NCBI RefSeq assembly: GCF_988242995.1
Contig: NZ_OZ547043.1
Length of the DNA stretch: 64,000 nucleotides
Direction: 5' to 3' (one strand)
The notes under the pieces were generated by a model. That model did no database searches. It worked only from the letters and a program-made list of their open reading frames with translations, and was not told the DNA's origin. Below, piece after piece: positions 7,682 through 36,497 of the stretch; the stretch's first letter is position 1; each line of letters opens with the position of its first letter. The translations under genes were made by a program, and so were the position numbers.

Positions 7682-8953
7682 ATGCAGTATGAAGATGAAA
7701 ACGGCGTGAATGAACCGTCACGCCGACGTTTACTGAAAGGGATTGGTGCGCTGGCGCTGGCGGGAAGTTGTCCGGTCGCTCATGCACAAAAAACGCAAAG
7801 TGCACCGGGTACGCTTTCACCGGATGCACGCAATGAGAAACAGCTGTTTTATGGTGAGCATCAGGCAGGGATCCTGACGCCACAACAGGCCGCAATGATG
7901 CTGGTGGCGTTTGATGTGCTTGCCAGCGATAAAGCCGATCTTGAGCGGTTGTTTCGCTTGTTGACTCAGCGTTTTGCTTTTCTGACTCAGGGCGGAGCAG
8001 CACCAGAAACGCCAAATCCGCGCCTGCCACCACTCGATTCCGGCATTCTTGGCGGCTACATTGCGCCCGATAATCTCACCATCACATTATCGGTGGGCCA
8101 CTCATTGTTTGATGAGCGCTTTGGCCTTGCGTCGCAGATGCCGAAAAAGTTGCAGAAGATGACGCGTTTCCCCAACGACTCGCTTGATGCAGCATTATGT
8201 CATGGTGATGTGTTGCTACAAATTTGCGCCAACACCCAGGATACGGTGATCCATGCGCTGCGCGATATCATCAAACACACGCCGGATTTGCTCAGTGTGC
8301 GCTGGAAGCGGGAAGGGTTTATTTCCGATCACGCGGCGCGTAGTAAAGGCAAAGAGACGCCGATTAATTTGCTGGGTTTCAAAGACGGCACTGCCAATCC
8401 CGATAGCCAGAATGATAAGTTGATGCAAAAAGTGGTGTGGGTGACGGCAGATCAGCAGGAGCCTGCGTGGACAATCGGCGGCAGCTACCAGGCGGTGCGG
8501 TTGATTCAGTTTCGGGTGGAATTTTGGGACAGAACGCCGCTGAAAGAACAGCAGACGATATTTGGGCGTGATAAGCAAACCGGCGCGCCGCTGGGAATGC
8601 AGCATGAGCATGATGTTCCCGATTACGCCAGCGATCCGGAAGGGAAGGTGATTGCGCTGGACAGCCATATCCGGCTGGCGAATCCCCGCACGCCAGAGAG
8701 TGAGTCAAGTCTGATGCTGCGTCGTGGCTACAGTTATTCGTTGGGCGTCACCAACTCCGGACAACTGGATATGGGGCTACTGTTTGTCTGCTATCAACAC
8801 GATCTGGAAAAAGGCTTCCTGACAGTACAAAAAAGGCTCAATGGCGAAGCGCTGGAGGAATACGTTAAACCTATCGGCGGCGGTTATTTTTTTTCGCTGC
8901 CGGGAGTGAAGGACGCGAACGATTATCTCGGAAGCGCGTTATTACAGGTTTGA
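7682..8953 (+). CDS. efeB: EfeB Tat-exported dye-decolorising (DyP-type) haem peroxidase
   Basis: 423 aa; twin-arginine motif SRRRLLKG near N-terminus. Confidence 0.94.
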
Positions 8954-8964
8954 ACGACGCAAAT

Positions 8965-9058
8965 ATGCCCGATGCGCAGGTTTATCGGGCATGAGTTTTG
9001 TGCACAAATTATTAATCACTTGTAGGTCGGGTAAGGCGTTCACGCCGCATCCGGCAAG
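8965..9058. repeat. Palindromic unit plus REP element in efeB-phoH spacer
   Basis: ATGCCCGAT..ATCGGGCAT palindrome and GTAGGTCGGGTAAGGCGTTCACGCCGCATCCGGCA typical REP sequence. Confidence 0.6.
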
Positions 9059-9108
9059 TTTTTACCAGTACTGCGAATCCTGCTGAAAGCACACAGCTTT
9101 TTTCATCA

Positions 9109-9126
9109 CTGTCATCACTCTGTCAT
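9109..9126 (+). promoter_or_regulatory. Pho box (PhoB binding site) of phoH promoter
   Basis: CTGTCAT CACT CTGTCAT: two perfect 7-bp direct repeats with 4-bp spacer, about 150 bp upstream of phoH ATG. Confidence 0.8.
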
Positions 9127-9275
9127 CTTTCCAGCAGAAACTAATGTCACTGAAATGGGTGTTTATCGTTAAACACAAGTAAATATAATGTTGCAATGAA
9201 TGCGAGTTCTGTTGTAATTATTAAGTAGCAGCGGAAGTTCCCGGCAGTGATAGTCAGTCACTATGGAGATCGCGG

Positions 9276-10340
9276 ATGGTAACGTCCTGTACTGGACATG
9301 TTTTAGATAATCAGCGCGCCACCACTCGCGGAGATTTCTCCTCCGGTAGCAACTTCGTCACTTTGTATTTTCAACCTCATCCTTTCTTTTCATGTGTTAC
9401 CGACGCCGTAAACGGTGCGCGTAGCCGTTTTTCGGCATTTTATCCAAAAGCAAACTATGGCTTACAAGGAAGCCAACCCTCTGATGTTCGTGCGCATAAT
9501 CGCGCTGCCAACGGCGCGTGTGATGAATACAAACAACTCAAGGTGCTCTCCATGGGAAGACAAAAAGCAGTGATCAAAGCTCGTCGCGAGGCAAAACGTG
9601 TGCTGAGACGGGATTCGCGCAGCCATAAGCAGCGTGAAGAAGAATCGGTCACCTCGCTTGTGCAGATGAGCGGCGTAGAAGCCATTGGTATGGCCCGCGA
9701 CAGTCGCGATACCTCGCCCATCCTCGCGCGAAATGAAGCGCAATTGCACTATCTGAAGGCTATTGAGAGTAAGCAGCTGATATTCGCCACGGGCGAAGCC
9801 GGGTGCGGAAAAACCTGGATCAGCGCAGCAAAAGCGGCAGAGGCCCTGATACATAAGGATGTCGACAGGATTATCGTCACCCGTCCAGTTCTGCAAGCCG
9901 ATGAAGATCTTGGCTTCTTACCTGGAGATATCGCAGAAAAGTTTGCTCCCTATTTTCGTCCGGTCTACGACGTGCTGGTCCGGCGCTTAGGGGCTTCCTT
10001 TATGCAGTACTGCCTGCGACCGGAAATAGGGAAGGTGGAAATTGCGCCGTTCGCCTATATGCGTGGACGTACCTTTGAAAATGCAGTCGTCATTCTTGAC
10101 GAGGCGCAGAATGTGACTGCCGCGCAAATGAAAATGTTTTTAACCCGCCTCGGGGAGAACGTGACGGTTATCGTCAACGGTGATATCACGCAATGCGATT
10201 TGCCTCGCGGCGTGCGCTCCGGATTAAGTGACGCGCTGGAACGTTTCGAAGAAGATGAAATGGTCGGGATCGTCCGATTCGGTAAAGAGGATTGCGTACG
10301 TTCGGCACTTTGCCAACGTACGCTACATGCATACAGTTAA
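9276..10340 (+). CDS. phoH: PhoH, phosphate-starvation-inducible ATP-binding protein
   Basis: 354 aa, Walker A GEAGCGKT; matches recalled PhoH. Confidence 0.95.
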   Translation: MVTSCTGHVLDNQRATTRGDFSSGSNFVTLYFQPHPFFSCVTDAVNGARSRFSAFYPKANYGLQGSQPSDVRAHNRAANGACDEYKQLKVLSMGRQKAVIKARREAKRVLRRDSRSHKQREEESVTSLVQMSGVEAIGMARDSRDTSPILARNEAQLHYLKAIESKQLIFATGEAGCGKTWISAAKAAEALIHKDVDRIIVTRPVLQADEDLGFLPGDIAEKFAPYFRPVYDVLVRRLGASFMQYCLRPEIGKVEIAPFAYMRGRTFENAVVILDEAQNVTAAQMKMFLTRLGENVTVIVNGDITQCDLPRGVRSGLSDALERFEEDEMVGIVRFGKEDCVRSALCQRTLHAYS

Positions 10341-10358
10341 GTGTATTATCGGTACAGA

Positions 10359-10388
10359 GCCCGGGCGAACCGGGCTTTGTTTTATTTC
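10359..10388 (+). terminator. Rho-independent terminator after phoH
   Basis: GCCCGG GCGAA CCGGGC hairpin followed by TTTGTTTTATTT. Confidence 0.7.
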
Positions 10389-10902
10389 ATTAACAGCAAA
10401 GACTTTCACTTCAGGTTAACGTTCAGGGGGGCGACTTTGAGCGTGTTGATAAGCTGAAATGAATTCTGGTTTAGATACTCTTACCAGGCATTTTTCGTCA
10501 TAGCACCCGACCAGTGTAATGCCGCCAGCGCGGAGAGTTTTTTGCCTATCTTTTTCCAGCCATTCAACCTGTACAGGAGGTCTGGTGCCAATTTTGCGTA
10601 TGAGGTTTAATCAGCAATGGGCCATAATTTGACTGACTGATTAACACCGAATATATTCTCCTGATTTTATTTTTTAGGGATAATATTAAAAATATAAGGT
10701 TAATCTTAATTAATTCTTCAGCTAATATTGTGTGTTGTTATTTTTTGTGGACGGCAAGCCGCAATGGCAAAATAGGTATGGTTGTAATAATCAAAACATG
10801 ATACTAACTATATATAGATCGTTGAATTGTTGGCATGTAACTCGCTACAGCGAGTAGCGTTAGTAATGAAATATAATCAACATGGATAGGTGAAGATTAA
10901 TT

Positions 10903-11589
10903 ATGAGCTTTATGGTTTTTGTAACTTGTTTGACAATTGCATTTGTCGCCGGTTTTGCTGTTGCCAGAAAATTGACACTCCGAAAAGTTGCCTCATCGGT
11001 AATCATCACTAGATCGCAACCAGTCCCTTCCTCTGCAACTTCCCCTGCGGCTAAGGCGTCGACAAGGAGCTATACACCGCAGAAAACCTATCGTGACTCT
11101 CGTTGGCAAGAACGAGATGAGTTGTTCCAGGGAATGGTTGCCGAAGGTATTTTATTGGAAGGAAAAGAGTGGTTAATTACGCGTTGTGAAAAAATTTATT
11201 TTGATAATCTGGAGAAATGGTTTGGACATTATTGTCATATCCATTGCCAGGTCTCTCTGGGGCGCTTGATCAACTTTCCAGAACAACCCGAGTTTAGCGA
11301 AGAAGAAAGAAAGCGTTTCTTTGCAATTTATAATGGAATGGCAATGGATTATGTTCTGGTTTCAAAGAAGAACAATAAAATAGTCTGTGTTATTGAGCTG
11401 GATGATCCGAGTCATGAAAGGGCAGATCGCATTATTCGTGACCGTTGGTTGAATACGATTATGACTATTGCACGGGTGCCTTTTGTACGAGCTTCTGTCA
11501 CTAAATTGGATGAAATCCCTCCGGTCTGGGATACCCGTGACAAAATTCGCCCATTAGCCGCGGCGACAAAGGGTGAACCGTTGCATTAA
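10903..11589 (+). CDS. Hypothetical membrane-anchored protein with C-terminal PD-(D/E)xK-like nuclease-type domain (resembles DUF2726 / NERD-like fold); orphan accessory gene
   Basis: 228 aa ORF; AGGTGA RBS about 10 nt before ATG; N-terminal hydrophobic helix (aa 4-24), S/T/P-rich linker, C-terminal block MDYVLV..VIELDDPSHERADRIIRDRWL..VPFVR; visibly AT-rich; not recognised as a K-12 gene. Confidence 0.65.
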   Translation: MSFMVFVTCLTIAFVAGFAVARKLTLRKVASSVIITRSQPVPSSATSPAAKASTRSYTPQKTYRDSRWQERDELFQGMVAEGILLEGKEWLITRCEKIYFDNLEKWFGHYCHIHCQVSLGRLINFPEQPEFSEEERKRFFAIYNGMAMDYVLVSKKNNKIVCVIELDDPSHERADRIIRDRWLNTIMTIARVPFVRASVTKLDEIPPVWDTRDKIRPLAAATKGEPLH

Positions 11590-11596
11590 CTAAGTA

Positions 11597-11674
11597 CCCC
11601 GGTCGGGGCTCCTCATCCCCCCGGTGTGTGCAATATACGAAAAAAAAGCCCGTACTTTCGTACGAGCTCTTCTT
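11597..11674. repeat. Copy 1 of a 78-bp module that equals the serX downstream terminator region
   Basis: Near-identical (3 differences) to 12489-12565, which sits directly 3' of intact serX; contains CCCCGGTCGGGG and CGTAC..GTACG hairpins and an A8/T8 run. Confidence 0.7.
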
Positions 11675-12385
11675 GTGCACAGAAAACCCCCAGCTAGGCT
11701 GGGGGTTCCGGAAAGCTTTCAGCTTTGAGCCAGTTATTAAAACCCCTTTTGATTTGTTAAAACACCTTGCGGTCTGGCAACTGCAAGTGTCAAACAAGAA
11801 ATCAAAAGGGGGTCCCAATGGGGGACGAAAAGAGCTTAGCGCACACCCGCTGGAACTGTAAATATCACATAGTTTTTGCGCCGAAATACCGAAGACTGGC
11901 GTTTTACGGAGAGAAGCGTAGGGCGATAGGCAGTATTTTGAGAAAGCTGTGTGAGTGGAAAAGCGTACGGATTCTGGAAGCAGAGTGCTGCGCAGATCAT
12001 ATCCATATGCTTGTGGAAATCCCACCCAAAATGAGCGTATCCGGCTTTATGGGATATCTGAAAGGGAAAAGCAGTCTGATGCTTTACGAGCAGTTTGGGG
12101 ATTTGAAATTCAAATACAGAAACAGGGAGTTCTGGTGCCGAGGGTACTATGTCGATACGGTGGGTAAGAACACGGCGAAGATACAGGACTACATAAAGCA
12201 CCAGCTTGAAGAGGATAAAATGGGAGAGCAGTTATCGATTCCCTATCCGGGCAGCCCGTTTACGGGCCGTAAGTAACGAAGTTGGATGCAAATGTCAGAT
12301 CGTGTGCGCCTGTTAGGGCGCGGCTGGTAACAGAGCCTTACAGGCGCATTTGAAAAACCTCCGGCTATGCCGGAGGATATTTATT
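11675..12385 (+). mobile_element. IS200-like insertion sequence (IS200/IS605 family), about 0.71 kb
   Basis: Single 152-aa HuH transposase; subterminal hairpins CCCCCAGC-TAG-GCTGGGGG (11687-11705) and CCTCCGGC-TAT-GCCGGAGG (12358-12376); no terminal inverted repeats; size as expected for IS200; exact ends approximate. Confidence 0.8.
11818..12276 (+). CDS. tnpA: IS200 transposase TnpA (Y1 HuH)
   Basis: 152 aa MGDEKSLAHTRWNCKYHIVFAPKYRR..HIHML..RGYYVDTVG; HuH motif and catalytic Tyr region; ORF track extends upstream to an in-frame start at 11767. Confidence 0.9.
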   Translation: MGDEKSLAHTRWNCKYHIVFAPKYRRLAFYGEKRRAIGSILRKLCEWKSVRILEAECCADHIHMLVEIPPKMSVSGFMGYLKGKSSLMLYEQFGDLKFKYRNREFWCRGYYVDTVGKNTAKIQDYIKHQLEEDKMGEQLSIPYPGSPFTGRK

Positions 12386-12391
12386 TAAATA

Positions 12392-12488
12392 TGGCGGTGA
12401 GGGGGGGATTGACTCGCTTCGCTCGCCCTGCGGGCAGCCCGCTCACTGCGTTCACGGTCTGTCCAACTGGCTGTCGCCAGTTGTCGAA
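12392..12488 (-). repeat. Degenerate copy of serX 3' end (19-bp exact direct repeat 12392-12410) plus 78 bp of unrelated sequence; att-like scar
   Basis: TGGCGGTGAGGGGGGGATT is identical to the 3' end of intact serX at 12572-12590; upstream part does not fold into a tRNA. Confidence 0.6.
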
Positions 12489-12565
12489 CCCCGGTCGGGG
12501 CTTCTCATCCCCCGGTGTGTGCAATATACGAAAAAAAAGCCCGTACCTTCGTACGAGCTCTTCTT
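12489..12565 (-). terminator. serX downstream hairpin/terminator region (copy 2 of the 78-bp module)
   Basis: On the serX sense strand the tRNA is followed by GCTCGTACGAAGGTACGGGC hairpin and T8. Confidence 0.65.
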
Positions 12566-12571
12566 TAAAGA

Positions 12572-12659
12572 TGGCGGTGAGGGGGGGATTCGAACCCCCG
12601 ATACGTTGCCGTATACACACTTTCCAGGCGTGCTCCTTCAGCCACTCGGACACCTCACC
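12572..12659 (-). tRNA. serX: tRNA-Ser (serX type)
   Basis: 88 nt, sense strand GGTGAGGTGTCCGAGTGGCTGAAGGAGCACGCCTGGAAAGTGTGTATACGGCAACGTATCGGGGGTTCGAATCCCCCCCTCACCGCCA; long variable arm typical of tRNA-Ser, encoded CCA. Confidence 0.9.
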
Positions 12660-12693
12660 AAATTGTTGTTCCTGTCTTGCTGGAACGGGCGCT

Positions 12694-12722
12694 AATTTAG
12701 GGAAATCATGACCTGAGGTCAA
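12694..12722 (-). promoter_or_regulatory. Putative sigma70 promoter of serX
   Basis: On minus strand TTGACC (12717-12722), 17-bp spacer, TAAATT (12694-12699), GC-rich discriminator, about 30 nt before the tRNA 5' end. Confidence 0.5.
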
Positions 12723-12853
12723 CAAACTTTTTTAAAAAATCGCGTGTTTATTCAAACTTCAATCAATATGCAGTTTTAATAAGCGAAATCTGCTTTTTTT
12801 GCCACCGACCACGGATTTGTTATGCTGGTGGCTTTTGTAGATCATAACGATAA

Positions 12854-13831
<978 letters not shown>

Positions 13832-18204: not shown

Positions 18205-18958
18205 GATGAAACCCCGCTTTTTTTATTGATCGCACACCTGACAGCTGCCTCTAAAATAGAAGCACCAGAAGTACTGACAGATGTTGCACTGCTGTGTGTA
18301 GTAATAAATCAGCCCTAAATGGGTAAAATATAAAACTAATGGATTACATCTGATTTCAATCTAGCCATTACAAATCTTAAATCAAGTGTTAAACATGTAA
18401 CTAAATGTAACTCGTTATATTAAAATGTTAATCTTAAGGTTTTGTTAAGTTTAGAAATGATAGAAAAGTTGTACATTTGGTTTTTATTGCACAATTTTAA
18501 AAAATCATACAAATGGTGCTAACTTACTAATAATGCATATAAAAAATATTTCGGTGTAGTCCTTTCGTCATGTAAAACGTTGTTGTTTTTTCTTCACACC
18601 TCCGTGGACAATTTTTTACTGCAAAAAGACGAGGTTTGTCACGGCTTGTGCGCAAGACATATCGCAGCAATCAGCGACGGGCAAGAAGAATGGCTGTCTG
18701 GTGATTTTTGATTGCGGAAAACGGAGATTTAAAAGAAAACAAAATATTTTTTTGCGTAGATAACAGCGTATTTACGTGGGTTTTAATACTTTGGTATGAA
18801 CAAAAAAAGAAAAATACAACGCGCGGGTGAGTTATTAAAAATATTTCCGCAGACATACTTTCCATCGTAACGCAGCGTTAACAAAATACAGGTTGCGTTA
18901 ACAACCAAGTTGAAATGATTTAATTTCTTAAATGTACGACCAGGTCCAGGGTGACAAC
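18205..18958. promoter_or_regulatory. csgD-csgB divergent intergenic control region
   Basis: 754 bp, strongly AT-rich; contains GTTACATTTAGTTACATGTTTAACAC on the csgD strand (about 18386-18414), consistent with the OmpR/CpxR region of the csgD promoter. Confidence 0.8.
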
Positions 18959-33486: not shown

Positions 33487-34053
33487 TTATACTCCATAGT
33501 CAGATGACGACTTTCCCAGCATGCGCTTCAGAGTGTCGTCTTTATCGATGAAATGATGCTTCAGGGCCATAAATCCATGCATAACGGACAGTACTACGAC
33601 GCTCCACGCGAGCCAAAAATGCAGGGCACCGGCAAAGTCAGCCTGTGCGCCAGCGTCGGCGAGGGTCGCGGGGACGTCAAACCAGCCAAAAACGCTGATC
33701 GGTTTACCATCGGCAGTTGAGATCAGATAGCCGCTGATGCCGATGGCGAACAGCAATAAGTACAATGCGAGATGTCCAGCCTTTGCGCCAAGACGAGTCA
33801 TGGGCGAATAACTCTGCAGCGGACCCGGCGGTGGAGATATGACGCGCCACAGAACGCGAATAACCAGCCCCATCATTAACAAAATGCCGATGCTTTTATG
33901 CACTTCGGGTGCTTTGTGATACCAGCCATCGTAATAACTGAGCGTGACCATCCACAGACCTAAAGCAAACATGCCGTAGACAATAATTGCGCTTAGCCAA
34001 TGGAAGGCCGCAGATATAACACCATAGCGTTCAGGGGTATTTGTGAATGACAT
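33487..34053 (-). CDS. yceJ: YceJ cytochrome b561 family protein
   Basis: 188 aa from ATG at 34051-34053 (MSFTNTPERYGVISAAFHW). Confidence 0.9.
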   Translation of the reverse strand: MSFTNTPERYGVISAAFHWLSAIIVYGMFALGLWMVTLSYYDGWYHKAPEVHKSIGILLMMGLVIRVLWRVISPPPGPLQSYSPMTRLGAKAGHLALYLLLFAIGISGYLISTADGKPISVFGWFDVPATLADAGAQADFAGALHFWLAWSVVVLSVMHGFMALKHHFIDKDDTLKRMLGKSSSDYGV

Positions 34054-34313
34054 AAGTGCATCCAAAACGAATTTGCGAGAGAAAGAAAATGGCGTGTCGG
34101 AGAATGAAATGCAACACAAAAATAACAAATTGAATGATATTTATTTTTATTTCAATAATTTTGAATTAATAATGAAAGAATCTTCATAAGTTTAGTGGAT
34201 TCAGCATTTGGAAGGTCTGGTGAGTGCTGTAGAGGCAGGAAGAATCTCATTCAATTTTTCACGCTAAATGAAAGGGAGATTAAATATTTGTCAGTTTATG
34301 TCAGTACGGAAAA

Positions 34314-34427
34314 CTAAAAATAAAACACATAGATCAGATCCATAATTGCCAACAATCCCCAGAGAAAAAGATAAAGCATCAGATGCTCGCGAATATTATT
34401 GATGAGATAGTGCAACAGCCGACGCAT
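34314..34427 (-). CDS. yceO: YceO small membrane protein
   Basis: 37-aa frame [37 protein letters not shown], below ORF-track cutoff, found by reading; recalled K-12 length is longer, so the 3' end may differ. Confidence 0.5.
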
Positions 34428-35707: not shown

Positions 35708-35962
35708 TTAATGACGCCGATACTCGTTTACCGGGAAATCACCGGATTCAATTTTGGCGATTCCTGCTTCTAATATCGAAATAAATTGTCTGGCAACATC
35801 AGTGGTTAACCAGAGCGTCTGACCAACTTCAGTCCCTTCCTGCTCGGACTTATTTGGGGTCTGGTAGTGCAAACGCAACATCAGCGCATCATAGCTATCA
35901 ACGGTGCTGATGTCCCACCCTACGAGCGGATGAGTCTGAATGACTTCATTATTTTTTTCCAT
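35708..35962 (-). CDS. bssS: BssS biofilm regulator
   Basis: 84 aa MEKNNEVIQTHPLVGWD. Confidence 0.92.
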   Translation of the reverse strand: MEKNNEVIQTHPLVGWDISTVDSYDALMLRLHYQTPNKSEQEGTEVGQTLWLTTDVARQFISILEAGIAKIESGDFPVNEYRRH

Positions 35963-36214
35963 CATGGCCCCCTAATTCGTGTTACTAGACAACGTTATTC
36001 GAGGTTCAATGCGTTTTTATCTGAAGCAACTTCAGTATACCAATAAGTAAGGGTATTCACCGAATTTTTAAAGGGGGGAACAGATAAATTTTTGCTTTTA
36101 AGATTTATATGAACAATAAAACAGCATGTCATTCATATTTTTTTAGCATATTGTGCAATTATTTTGAGGAAGTGTAGAAATTTTGTACTCGAAATTTGTA
36201 AGTAAAATAAAAAA

Positions 36215-36230
36215 GCCGGGGCGACCCGGC
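36215..36230 (-). terminator. dinI terminator hairpin
   Basis: GCCGGGGCGACCCGGC flanked by A/T runs immediately after dinI stop. Confidence 0.55.
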
Positions 36231-36251
36231 AAAAACAAAAATCACTGCATA

Positions 36252-36497
36252 TTATTCGCTGACAAACCAGTCATCGGCGCTTTCCCACGTTTCCTGGAGA
36301 ATTTCGCTAATGCGCTGTTTATCTTCTTTTGTCGCGCCAATAACCGATAAATTATTCGCTGCGGCATAACGTACCGATACGTGGCCTTCATTATCAGGAA
36401 ACGCATACTGAATACGGCGGGAAAGTTCGCCAGCCAGGGCGTCAATAGCCCCAGCTGGCAATGGAGAAGTTTTCGCTATGGTGACTTCAATTCGCAT
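36252..36497 (-). CDS. dinI: DinI DNA-damage-inducible protein
   Basis: 81 aa MRIEVTIAKTSPLPAG; ORF track gives a longer frame starting upstream. Confidence 0.93.
   Translation of the reverse strand: MRIEVTIAKTSPLPAGAIDALAGELSRRIQYAFPDNEGHVSVRYAAANNLSVIGATKEDKQRISEILQETWESADDWFVSE

Follow-up and report, generated by a model that had tools for sequence, protein, structure and literature searches.

Gene order and haplotypes between phoH and ghrA

The window analyzed here, a 64,000-nucleotide stretch of contig NZ_OZ547043.1 (assembly GCF_988242995.1), is Escherichia chromosome and carries efeB, phoH, an AT-rich leader, a DUF2726 gene, IS200, serX, and ghrA, in this order. The leader (10389–10902) had been noted from its letters alone as a non-coding region upstream of an orphan ORF. 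The locus comprises the following features:

7682–8953: efeB
ending at 10340: phoH
10354–10380, plus strand: intrinsic terminator of phoH, an 11-bp stem followed by a T-run; the last sequence common to all E. coli
10384–10628, no strand: Escherichia-specific proximal half of the intergenic region, an indel-prone spacer of ~45% GC
10469–10505, plus strand: best-conserved proximal block (37 nt), overlapping a weak hairpin with a U5 run (~10474–10510)
10481–10591, minus strand: ORF of 36 aa beginning with TTG, lengthened to 45 aa where alleles have a further 27 nt at 10543/10544
10575–10632, plus strand: mini-ORF with AGGAGG (10575–10580), a 4-nt spacer, GTG (10585–10587), 15 codons, and TGA (10630–10632)
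10629–10657, plus strand: candidate distal promoter TTGACT-17-TATATT, matching 10 of 12 consensus positions
10641–10902, no strand: AT-rich distal half, likely the promoter/silencing region of the DUF2726 gene, judging by its composition and by derepression of the downstream gene
10840–10855 and 10843–10859, plus strand: hairpin in two overlapping registers, from fold prediction
10867–10877, plus strand: candidate proximal promoter TGAAATATAAT, with a perfect -10 TATAAT (10872–10877) and a predicted start at ~10884
10888–10905, plus strand: Shine-Dalgarno AGGTGA (10888–10893), a 9-nt spacer, and ATG at 10903
10903–11589, plus strand: DUF2726 gene served by the leader, encoding 228 aa with a hydrophobic N-terminus (Pfam PF10881, E = 1.8e-18)
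12575–12659, minus strand: tRNA-Ser gene serX

The leader is carried by ~1051 of 5426 complete E. coli genomes (19%), the nearest of which is E. coli VCSW7 (99.1% identity). The segment 10384–11595, comprising the leader and the DUF2726 gene, is likewise found in ~19% of these genomes; in all E. coli genomes that have it, it is single-copy and located at this locus, which argues against a repeat or mobile element. The other matching genomes (~80% of E. coli) share only positions 10341–10383, i.e., the first 43 nt past phoH with the terminator, and the haplotype breakpoint lies at 10383/10384. In the alignment with K-12, identity ends at 10383 and returns at 11596 in the repeats trailing serX; therefore, the 1212 bp of leader and gene replace ~10.9 kb, which in K-12 hold pgaDCBA, dgcT, IS3, ymdE, and ycdU. 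Besides K-12, other well-mapped strains that were checked have the pga haplotype: ETEC H10407 (for which H-NS ChIP-seq has reportedly been published), O104:H4, 55989, and EDL933. The 10.9-kb block between phoH and ghrA has already been published as a region of heterogeneity, and the accounts of the block do not mention the 1.2-kb replacement haplotype with the leader and the DUF2726 gene (PMC4951805, PMC5635171). A 13-nt inverted match between 10380–10392 and 10864–10876 is estimated to be at chance level for AT-rich DNA. Given the phoH neighbor, Pho regulation of the leader was considered and dismissed, as the only Pho box found by scanning the window (9109–9126) belongs to phoH itself.

The match of the downstream ORF to PF10881, a property that it shares with other DUF2726 proteins, spans residues 90–205; the family has been placed within the PD-(D/E)XK phosphodiesterase superfamily (PMC3424549). 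Orthologs of the gene occur in E. coli, E. albertii, and Salmonella. Relatives at 37–54% identity, whose leaders are short or missing, are located in T6SS clusters, beside vgrG, or in ICE-like elements, and the distant relatives are always AT-richer than the DNA of their hosts. In contrast, the copy studied here is solitary after phoH and has a long AT-rich upstream region of its own. None of the relatives below ~60% identity adjoins phoH, as they are found in T6SS clusters, in ICE-like regions, or after a different gene, and the distant orthologs were thus rejected as a source of alignable upstream regions. S. Typhimurium SL1344 is without the DUF2726 gene after phoH; STM1127 is a different gene that encodes a MurR-type regulator. 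The comparisons below are based on an alignment of eight Escherichia alleles, to which three Salmonella sequences were later added.

The Escherichia-specific spacer downstream of phoH

The stretch from phoH to the DUF2726 gene is best seen as a composite of different parts rather than as a single structured leader. As originally predicted, there is no ORF of at least 60 aa inside 10389–10902, the longest internal one having 41 aa; a 63-aa out-of-frame ORF begins inside phoH and ends at 10419. The absence of ORFs from 0.5 kb at 37% GC is not remarkable in itself. The proximal half is absent from Salmonella, where AT-rich DNA directly follows the phoH terminator, and its Escherichia alleles differ by indels of 8, 12, 23, 27, and 36 nt. 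The allele of the window is without the 27 nt at 10543/10544 that most alleles carry. Substitutions in the proximal half fall evenly into the three codon phases (20/21/18), with no coding periodicity, and no paralogs of this DNA were found in E. coli genomes.

Near this GC-normal part, the original prediction had noted a tiny frame preceded by a ribosome-binding site. Such a frame does exist, with 15 codons, a stop, and a 4-nt spacer; by our estimate, 64 kb should contain several chance occurrences of AGGAGG closely followed by a start codon. In the mini-ORF of E. albertii, TGGAAG stands in place of the Shine-Dalgarno sequence and GTA in place of the GTG start; the most frequent allele has AGGAGA as its Shine-Dalgarno sequence, and the residue at position 5 can be R, L, or P. 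With its Shine-Dalgarno sequence weakened in most alleles, its start lost in E. albertii, and the proximal half absent from Salmonella, the mini-ORF looks incidental rather than functional, as judged from the aligned alleles. In the cryptic-clade allele, an in-frame stop codon interrupts the minus-strand ORF, and E. albertii has both a stop and a frameshift in it; no Shine-Dalgarno sequence is visible upstream of this ORF. Neither ORF shows the combination of conserved start, Shine-Dalgarno sequence, frame, and codon-phased substitutions that characterizes small proteins and leader peptides.

Evidence for a structured RNA in the proximal half is mixed. In 90-nt windows, the plus strand of 10356–10505 folds better than its shuffles, and the block 10469–10505 is nearly invariant in the eight Escherichia alleles, E. 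albertii included. The z-score of a 129-nt unit of the folding region is only -1.6, and the stem-loop at ~10410–10470 that is behind the good folding is deleted in the cryptic clade. The weak hairpin at ~10474–10510 has one compensatory pair and several broken pairs, with an unfavorable covariation term (+2.73). Conceivably, the conserved block, with its hairpin and U5 run, belongs to a short transcript that is not annotated or is a site bound by a protein.

We thus weighed two readings in which the proximal half is, or once was, a gene. That it hides a functional one, be it the 15-codon ORF, the minus-strand ORF of 36/45 aa, or a small RNA with its end at ~10474–10510, is very improbable. Its attractions are the AGGAGG that precedes the GTG, a 27-nt indel that is in frame and leaves both long frames open, the annotation of the 45-aa ORF in a few E. 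coli records, the 37-nt block kept as far as E. albertii, and the favorable folding of the plus strand; these are set against the loss or weakening of translation signals in both ORFs, the interrupted minus frame in two Escherichia lineages, the substitutions without 3-nt periodicity, the deleted stem-loop with its unfavorable covariation, and the absence of the whole segment from Salmonella. Moreover, a full HMMER search of 1.84 billion representatives retrieved two Escherichia ORFs only and nothing outside Escherichia. In a word-indexed search of 5.8 billion proteins, the minus-frame peptide matched only the same E. coli ORF, and the plus-frame peptide had no match.

The same searches bear on the second reading, according to which 10384–10628 is a decayed ancestral gene. 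This history is doubtful, though it would be compatible with the explanation favored below as a sub-claim on the origin of the spacer. A pseudogene would be in line with the near-genome GC of the segment, in which it is unlike the rest of the intergenic region, with the two frames that stay open for 45–60 codons in several alleles, and with the confinement of the segment to Escherichia, as if it had been inserted or lost there. However, neither protein collection contains anything similar besides the same E. coli ORF, the substitutions show no codon-phase bias, and the segment is unlike any gene of the alternative pga-ycdU haplotype: tblastx and blastn comparisons with the K-12 haplotype and with the rest of the window revealed no similarity to it. 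After the peptide, HMMER, tblastx, and blastn searches, the proposal that the proximal half is a remnant of a known gene was rejected for lack of evidence. On present alignments, the proximal half appears to be a freely drifting spacer without detectable coding or RNA function.

Promoter candidates and the hairpin of the AT-rich half

The distal half is of a very different composition. Positions 10641–10902 have 29.8% GC (70% AT) compared with 50.8% for the window, which is within the lowest 0.3% of its 262-nt windows, and the lowest 100-nt value is 20% GC. Of the ten A or T tracts of at least 4 nt that the leader contains, six fall within the distal half. The extreme distal AT-richness with A/T tracts that had been noted from the letters is therefore real, and it equals that of the csgD-csgB intergenic region, which lies 8 kb away in the same window. 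All sequence features listed in the original prediction were recovered at their coordinates; among them, AT-richness alone is clearly beyond chance. The AT-rich half, unlike the spacer, is common to Salmonella, and the DNA upstream of the orthologs is equally AT-rich (24% GC in Salmonella and 32% GC in E. albertii). An AT content far above average over at least 100 bp directly upstream of a regulated gene, which is typical of silenced regions, is represented here by 262 bp at 29.8% GC.

Two candidate promoters face the DUF2726 gene. The distal candidate TTGACT-17-TATATT, which has a -35 and a -10 hexamer separated by a spacer within the 16–18 nt of sigma-70 promoters, scores higher with the sigma-70 weight matrix than any other site in the 64-kb window, both strands included; as a sanity check, the second-best score is located just upstream of the serX tRNA gene. 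Its predicted start is at ~10664, with a 5' UTR of ~239 nt, and the terminator scan found none from 10657 to the ATG. Of the seven alleles from E. coli and the cryptic clade, six have both hexamers intact (one B1-type allele has a TTGCCT -35); the candidate is degraded in E. albertii (TATATG) and absent in Salmonella. The proximal candidate TGAAATATAAT is invariant in all aligned Escherichia and Salmonella sequences, and no -35 recognizable by the weight-matrix scan accompanies its TATAAT. It is located within the least variable part of the leader, the 40 nt of 10861–10900 with 7% variable columns, and is followed by the Shine-Dalgarno/start region TTAATTATG, which is invariant as far as Salmonella. 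AT-rich DNA is full of promoter-like sequences, and the true start site is uncertain for this reason; on sequence grounds, either candidate may be the promoter actually used. Inspection of the leader by eye for CRP, FNR, Fur, LexA, and IHF sites gave nothing convincing.

The hairpin CGCTAC-AGCGA-GTAGCG, proposed as a regulatory structure or the end of a small RNA, is present exactly at 10843–10859, with 43 nt separating it from the ATG at 10903. Energetically, a different register is preferred, ACUCGC-UACA-GCGAGU at 10840–10855 (-10.9 kcal/mol). The z-score of the hairpin is -3.0 as a 33-mer and only -0.9 in a 106-nt context. In the alignment of eight alleles, 12 of 48 cells are unpaired in the originally predicted register and 7 of 48 in the preferred one, whose central U-A pair is lost in five of eight alleles; compensatory changes are absent from both registers, and every substitution breaks a pair. 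The exact allele of the window for 10815–10880 is found in 272 of ~1051 carriers (~26%) and the disrupted allele in 671, and the hairpin has no counterpart in Salmonella. The original prediction had expected a regulatory hairpin to be conserved in related sequences; a stem that is intact in ~26% of carriers and absent from Salmonella contradicts it. With intrinsic terminators and the 3' ends of small RNAs, which consist of a GC-rich stem and a U-run, the hairpin shares a short GC-containing stem-loop; it differs from them in that TTAGTAATG follows the stem, in that the terminator scan did not report it, and in that it is not conserved. The hairpin is not an intrinsic terminator or small RNA end because no U-tract follows, and this half of the proposal is to be abandoned as well. 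Conserved structure with compensatory changes, the hallmark of a cis-regulatory RNA, was not found either, and an Rfam scan of 9000–13000 at E <= 1 gave no match within 10341–10902, which includes the leader.

These results leave little room for a long 5' UTR with a regulatory function, its hairpin being an RNA switch, a thermosensor, a target of a small RNA or protein, or the 3' end of a small RNA, and we regard it as highly implausible. The strong distal promoter would indeed put the hairpin within the 239-nt 5' UTR, the local fold is stable (-10.9 kcal/mol, z = -3.0), and a small CAU/GUG stem at 10881–10892 exposes GGA in its loop beside the Shine-Dalgarno sequence, which presumably resembles a CsrA site and is treated here as a candidate. 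On the other side stand the pair-breaking substitutions with zero compensation, the poor conservation among carriers and in Salmonella, the lack of a U-tract and of an Rfam match, and folding z-scores of about zero across 10600–10900. Both the hairpin and the mini-ORF look incidental, as by-products of the sequence in one allele group, as far as the alleles compared suggest. Overall, the search for the hallmarks of an intrinsic terminator, a known cis-regulatory RNA, and a small-protein gene was negative in each case, and the region is none of the three.

Another possibility, improbable in our judgment, is that the near-consensus distal promoter drives a 239-nt, AT-rich, unstructured UTR that would act as a regulatory platform for this solitary gene of a membrane protein family associated with T6SS and ICEs, through H-NS/Hha silencing and possibly also CsrA binding at the GGA loop, with the block 10469–10505 being a transcript or protein-binding site in addition. 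A parallel is the leader of pgaABCD in the alternative haplotype, which takes the same position between phoH and serX. According to Wang et al. (2005), as cited in PMC4287979, pgaABCD has a long 5' UTR under CsrA control, and the 5' UTR of the DUF2726 gene (~239 nt) would be similarly long if the distal promoter were used. However, the pgaABCD leader has no sequence similarity to the DUF2726 leader, is on the opposite strand, and belongs to a different gene. A further likeness is the small stem of the DUF2726 leader that shows GGA in its loop beside the Shine-Dalgarno sequence, where CsrA binding would be a candidate by resemblance only.

Probable silencing by H-NS-family proteins and the age of the locus

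RNA-seq in an hns mutant had been suggested as a check of the original prediction, and published data serve this purpose. E. coli 042 carries the leader, 98% identical apart from one indel, and Table S1 of Prieto et al. (2018; PMC5861252) reports RNA-seq of this strain for the wild type, hha hha2, hns, hns2, and hns hns2, with one library per strain. For EC042_RS05775, the DUF2726 gene, sense RPKM values are 34, 88, 164, 100, and 224, respectively (PMC5861252). Antisense reads are ~3.4 times more abundant in libraries 2–4 than in the other two (1 and 5), and because of this higher background only the wild type and hns hns2 can be cleanly compared. In that comparison, with one library per strain, the nearly silent gene rises from 34 to 224 RPKM, i.e., 6.6-fold (PMC5861252, Table S1), which is the derepression expected upon removal of H-NS. 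Among 92 genes sampled from this table, leuO (10.8-fold) is the only one with a larger increase; efeU, efeO, efeB, ghrA, ycdX, ycdY, and ycdZ change 0.8–1.4-fold between the same two strains. The phoH gene rises 2.7-fold in hns hns2, and therefore some contribution of read-through to the DUF2726 signal is possible.

These data support silencing by H-NS-family proteins of the gene behind the leader, to whose DNA H-NS may bind directly. One 8/10 match to the H-NS motif TCGATAAATT is located at 10819; this match is uninformative because the whole window contains 73 of them. The locus has much in common with known H-NS-silenced regions of Enterobacteriaceae such as csgD-csgB, leuO, proU, and bgl: more than 250 bp of ~70% AT that immediately precede an accessory gene, itself AT-rich, several promoter-like elements, and near-silence of the gene with several-fold higher expression without H-NS and H-NS2. 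It differs from them in that it is old and syntenic, in that H-NS binding is putative here, and in that the clean effect is that of the double mutant, the single hns comparison being confounded by library background.

The original prediction combined H-NS silencing with horizontal acquisition, taking the ORF for an orphan. The silencing part agrees with the AT-richness and with derepression in hns hns2, whereas recent acquisition does not hold. The reading of leader and ORF as a foreign cassette of recent acquisition, with AT-richness as the signature of this event, can draw on the accessory status of the DUF2726 gene in E. coli (19% of genomes), on its 43% GC, which makes it AT-richer than its surroundings, on the location of distant relatives within T6SS clusters and ICE-like elements, and on the dependence of its expression on H-NS-family proteins. 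However, the order phoH-leader-DUF2726 is found, in the same orientation, in a cryptic Escherichia clade and in E. albertii, where it runs on through serX to ghrA, and the order phoH-DUF2726-serX-ghrA is found in Salmonella enterica; therefore, the locus is old and its acquisition not recent. Identities to E. albertii follow those of the neighbors (phoH 93%, DUF2726 gene 89%, ghrA 86%, and leader 75%), a pattern that fits vertical descent. Together with this synteny, the promoter-proximal motifs common to Salmonella make the cassette older than the Escherichia-Salmonella split. In addition, the polymorphism in E. coli corresponds to the alternative 10.9-kb haplotype that is already published (PMC4951805, PMC5635171). 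A foreign origin, as known for silenced DNA, is thus not apparent from a locus that is syntenic with E. albertii and Salmonella and that diverges like its flanking genes, and we consider a recent cassette quite unlikely; an ancient acquisition of the gene, whose wider family is mobile, is possible.

We consider it rather probable (~0.65) that the leader serves an old accessory gene as a promoter region of the ordinary, AT-rich type and that H-NS-type proteins keep this gene off. This reading builds on composition, promoter-like elements, conservation, old synteny, and hns hns2 derepression, each of them observed here or in the literature. The phoH terminator would be followed by ~245 bp of Escherichia-specific spacer with ordinary GC (10384–10628), possibly the ghost of a lost gene, with the putative near-consensus sigma-70 promoter (10629–10657) at its distal edge. 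Then would come ~260 bp of 70% AT, ending in the conserved TGAAATATAAT, the Shine-Dalgarno sequence, and the ATG of a presumably membrane-anchored DUF2726 protein, and this AT-rich half would constitute the promoter/control region of the gene. H-NS-family proteins (H-NS, H-NS2, and possibly Hha) would coat the AT tract and occlude the promoter elements, leaving the gene nearly silent, and loss of both H-NS and H-NS2 would free the promoters for RNA polymerase, with expression rising several-fold.

Two tempting but unsupported annotations, the regulatory hairpin and the mini-ORF, are hereby removed from the leader. The more interesting by-products of the analysis are the swap with the pga haplotype and the T6SS/ICE affinities of the gene family: what is known in E. 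coli as a polymorphism in the presence or absence of pga-dgcT-ycdU is the exchange of one haplotype for another. The orphan-looking gene after phoH turns out to be an old, syntenic gene of Escherichia and Salmonella with its own AT-rich control region, apparently silenced by H-NS, and, if the DUF2726 protein proves to have a role, this region would be where its expression is controlled.

Two haplotypes between phoH and serX

The interval between phoH and serX is occupied by one of two mutually exclusive haplotypes, namely the 1.2-kb segment formed by the AT-rich leader and the DUF2726 gene (10384-11595) versus the 10.9-kb pgaDCBA-dgcT-IS3-ymdE-ycdU block of K-12, both of which are bounded by the phoH terminator on one side and by the serX-trailing repeats on the other. 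The short haplotype is found in ~19% of complete E. coli genomes, and comparison with the K-12 pga-ycdU block detected no sequence in common. The pga genes have been argued to be ancestral and lost in Salmonella (Echeverz et al., PMC5464674). On the serX side, an IS200 copy (about 11675-12380) sits within one RtT-like repeat trailing serX, at a point that is IS-free in other strains, and includes the following features:

11685-11808, 5' UTR of IS200, Rfam STnc490 match
11818-12276, IS200 tnpA, NCBIfam IS200 transposase match (E = 2e-42)

On the phoH side, Rfam predicts an antisense RNA:

10142-10335, minus strand, Ysr251, antisense over the phoH 3' end, full-length Rfam match (192.8 bits)

In S. 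Typhimurium SL1344, mapping places an antisense start site (LSPncRNA58) immediately inside the phoH stop codon (supplement of PMC3963941); together with the Ysr251 match, this suggests that an antisense transcript may begin at the leader's left edge. The minus strand carries a GATAAT hexamer immediately inside the phoH terminator.

Sequence variation within the leader

At 10543/10544, 27 nt (CTTCCAGAAGCC.AAAAAGCGAG.ATC) carried by most other alleles, that of E. albertii among them, are missing from the window allele, and this short form appears to be common to roughly 170 complete E. coli genomes. The 37-nt block at 10469-10505 (TTTAGATACTCTTACCAGGCATTTTTCGTCATAGCAC) is near-invariant as far as E. 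albertii within an otherwise fast-drifting segment, and its conserved letters correspond to the loop and 3' tail of a predicted hairpin, not to its stem. The separate stem-loop CGCTAC-AGCGA-GTAGCG (10843-10859), which the original prediction considered a possible regulatory structure, is broken in the commonest allele by substitutions (GTAGCG to GTAACA) that also convert TAGCGT to the better -10-like hexamer TAACAT, 19 nt downstream of TTGGCA (10831-10836). Overlapping this hairpin, TTGGCA and TAACAT make up a weaker, third arrangement resembling a promoter (10831-10861).

Extremely AT-rich DNA also occurs in two more stretches, 34038-34388 and 35939-36256, where GC falls as low as 19-22% per 100 nt; the csgD-csgB intergenic region (18216-18666) and the leader are similarly AT-rich.

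Start and relatives of the DUF2726 protein

The DUF2726 orthologue is frequently annotated with an internal ATG as its start, for instance in Salmonella (loci L013-L015; 151 aa) and in the older annotation of E. coli 042 (456 nt, for the gene at NC_017626 1186986-1187672). These short models are probably wrong, because the MSFM... start, preceded by the conserved TTAATTATG, yields a protein of 219-228 aa that includes a hydrophobic N-terminus.

The window protein (10903-11589) has no match in PADLOC or NCBIfam. Its more distant relatives (37-54% identity; loci L016-L022 and L026) are encoded in three kinds of gene neighbourhood: (i) within a T6SS core cluster, in the order tssM-tssA-DUF2726-tssF-tssG; (ii) with vgrG immediately downstream; and (iii) in ICE-like regions containing TraG_N, toxin-antitoxin modules, and integrases. 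The DUF2726 gene beside phoH may represent a solitary copy of an accessory protein belonging to a conflict system.
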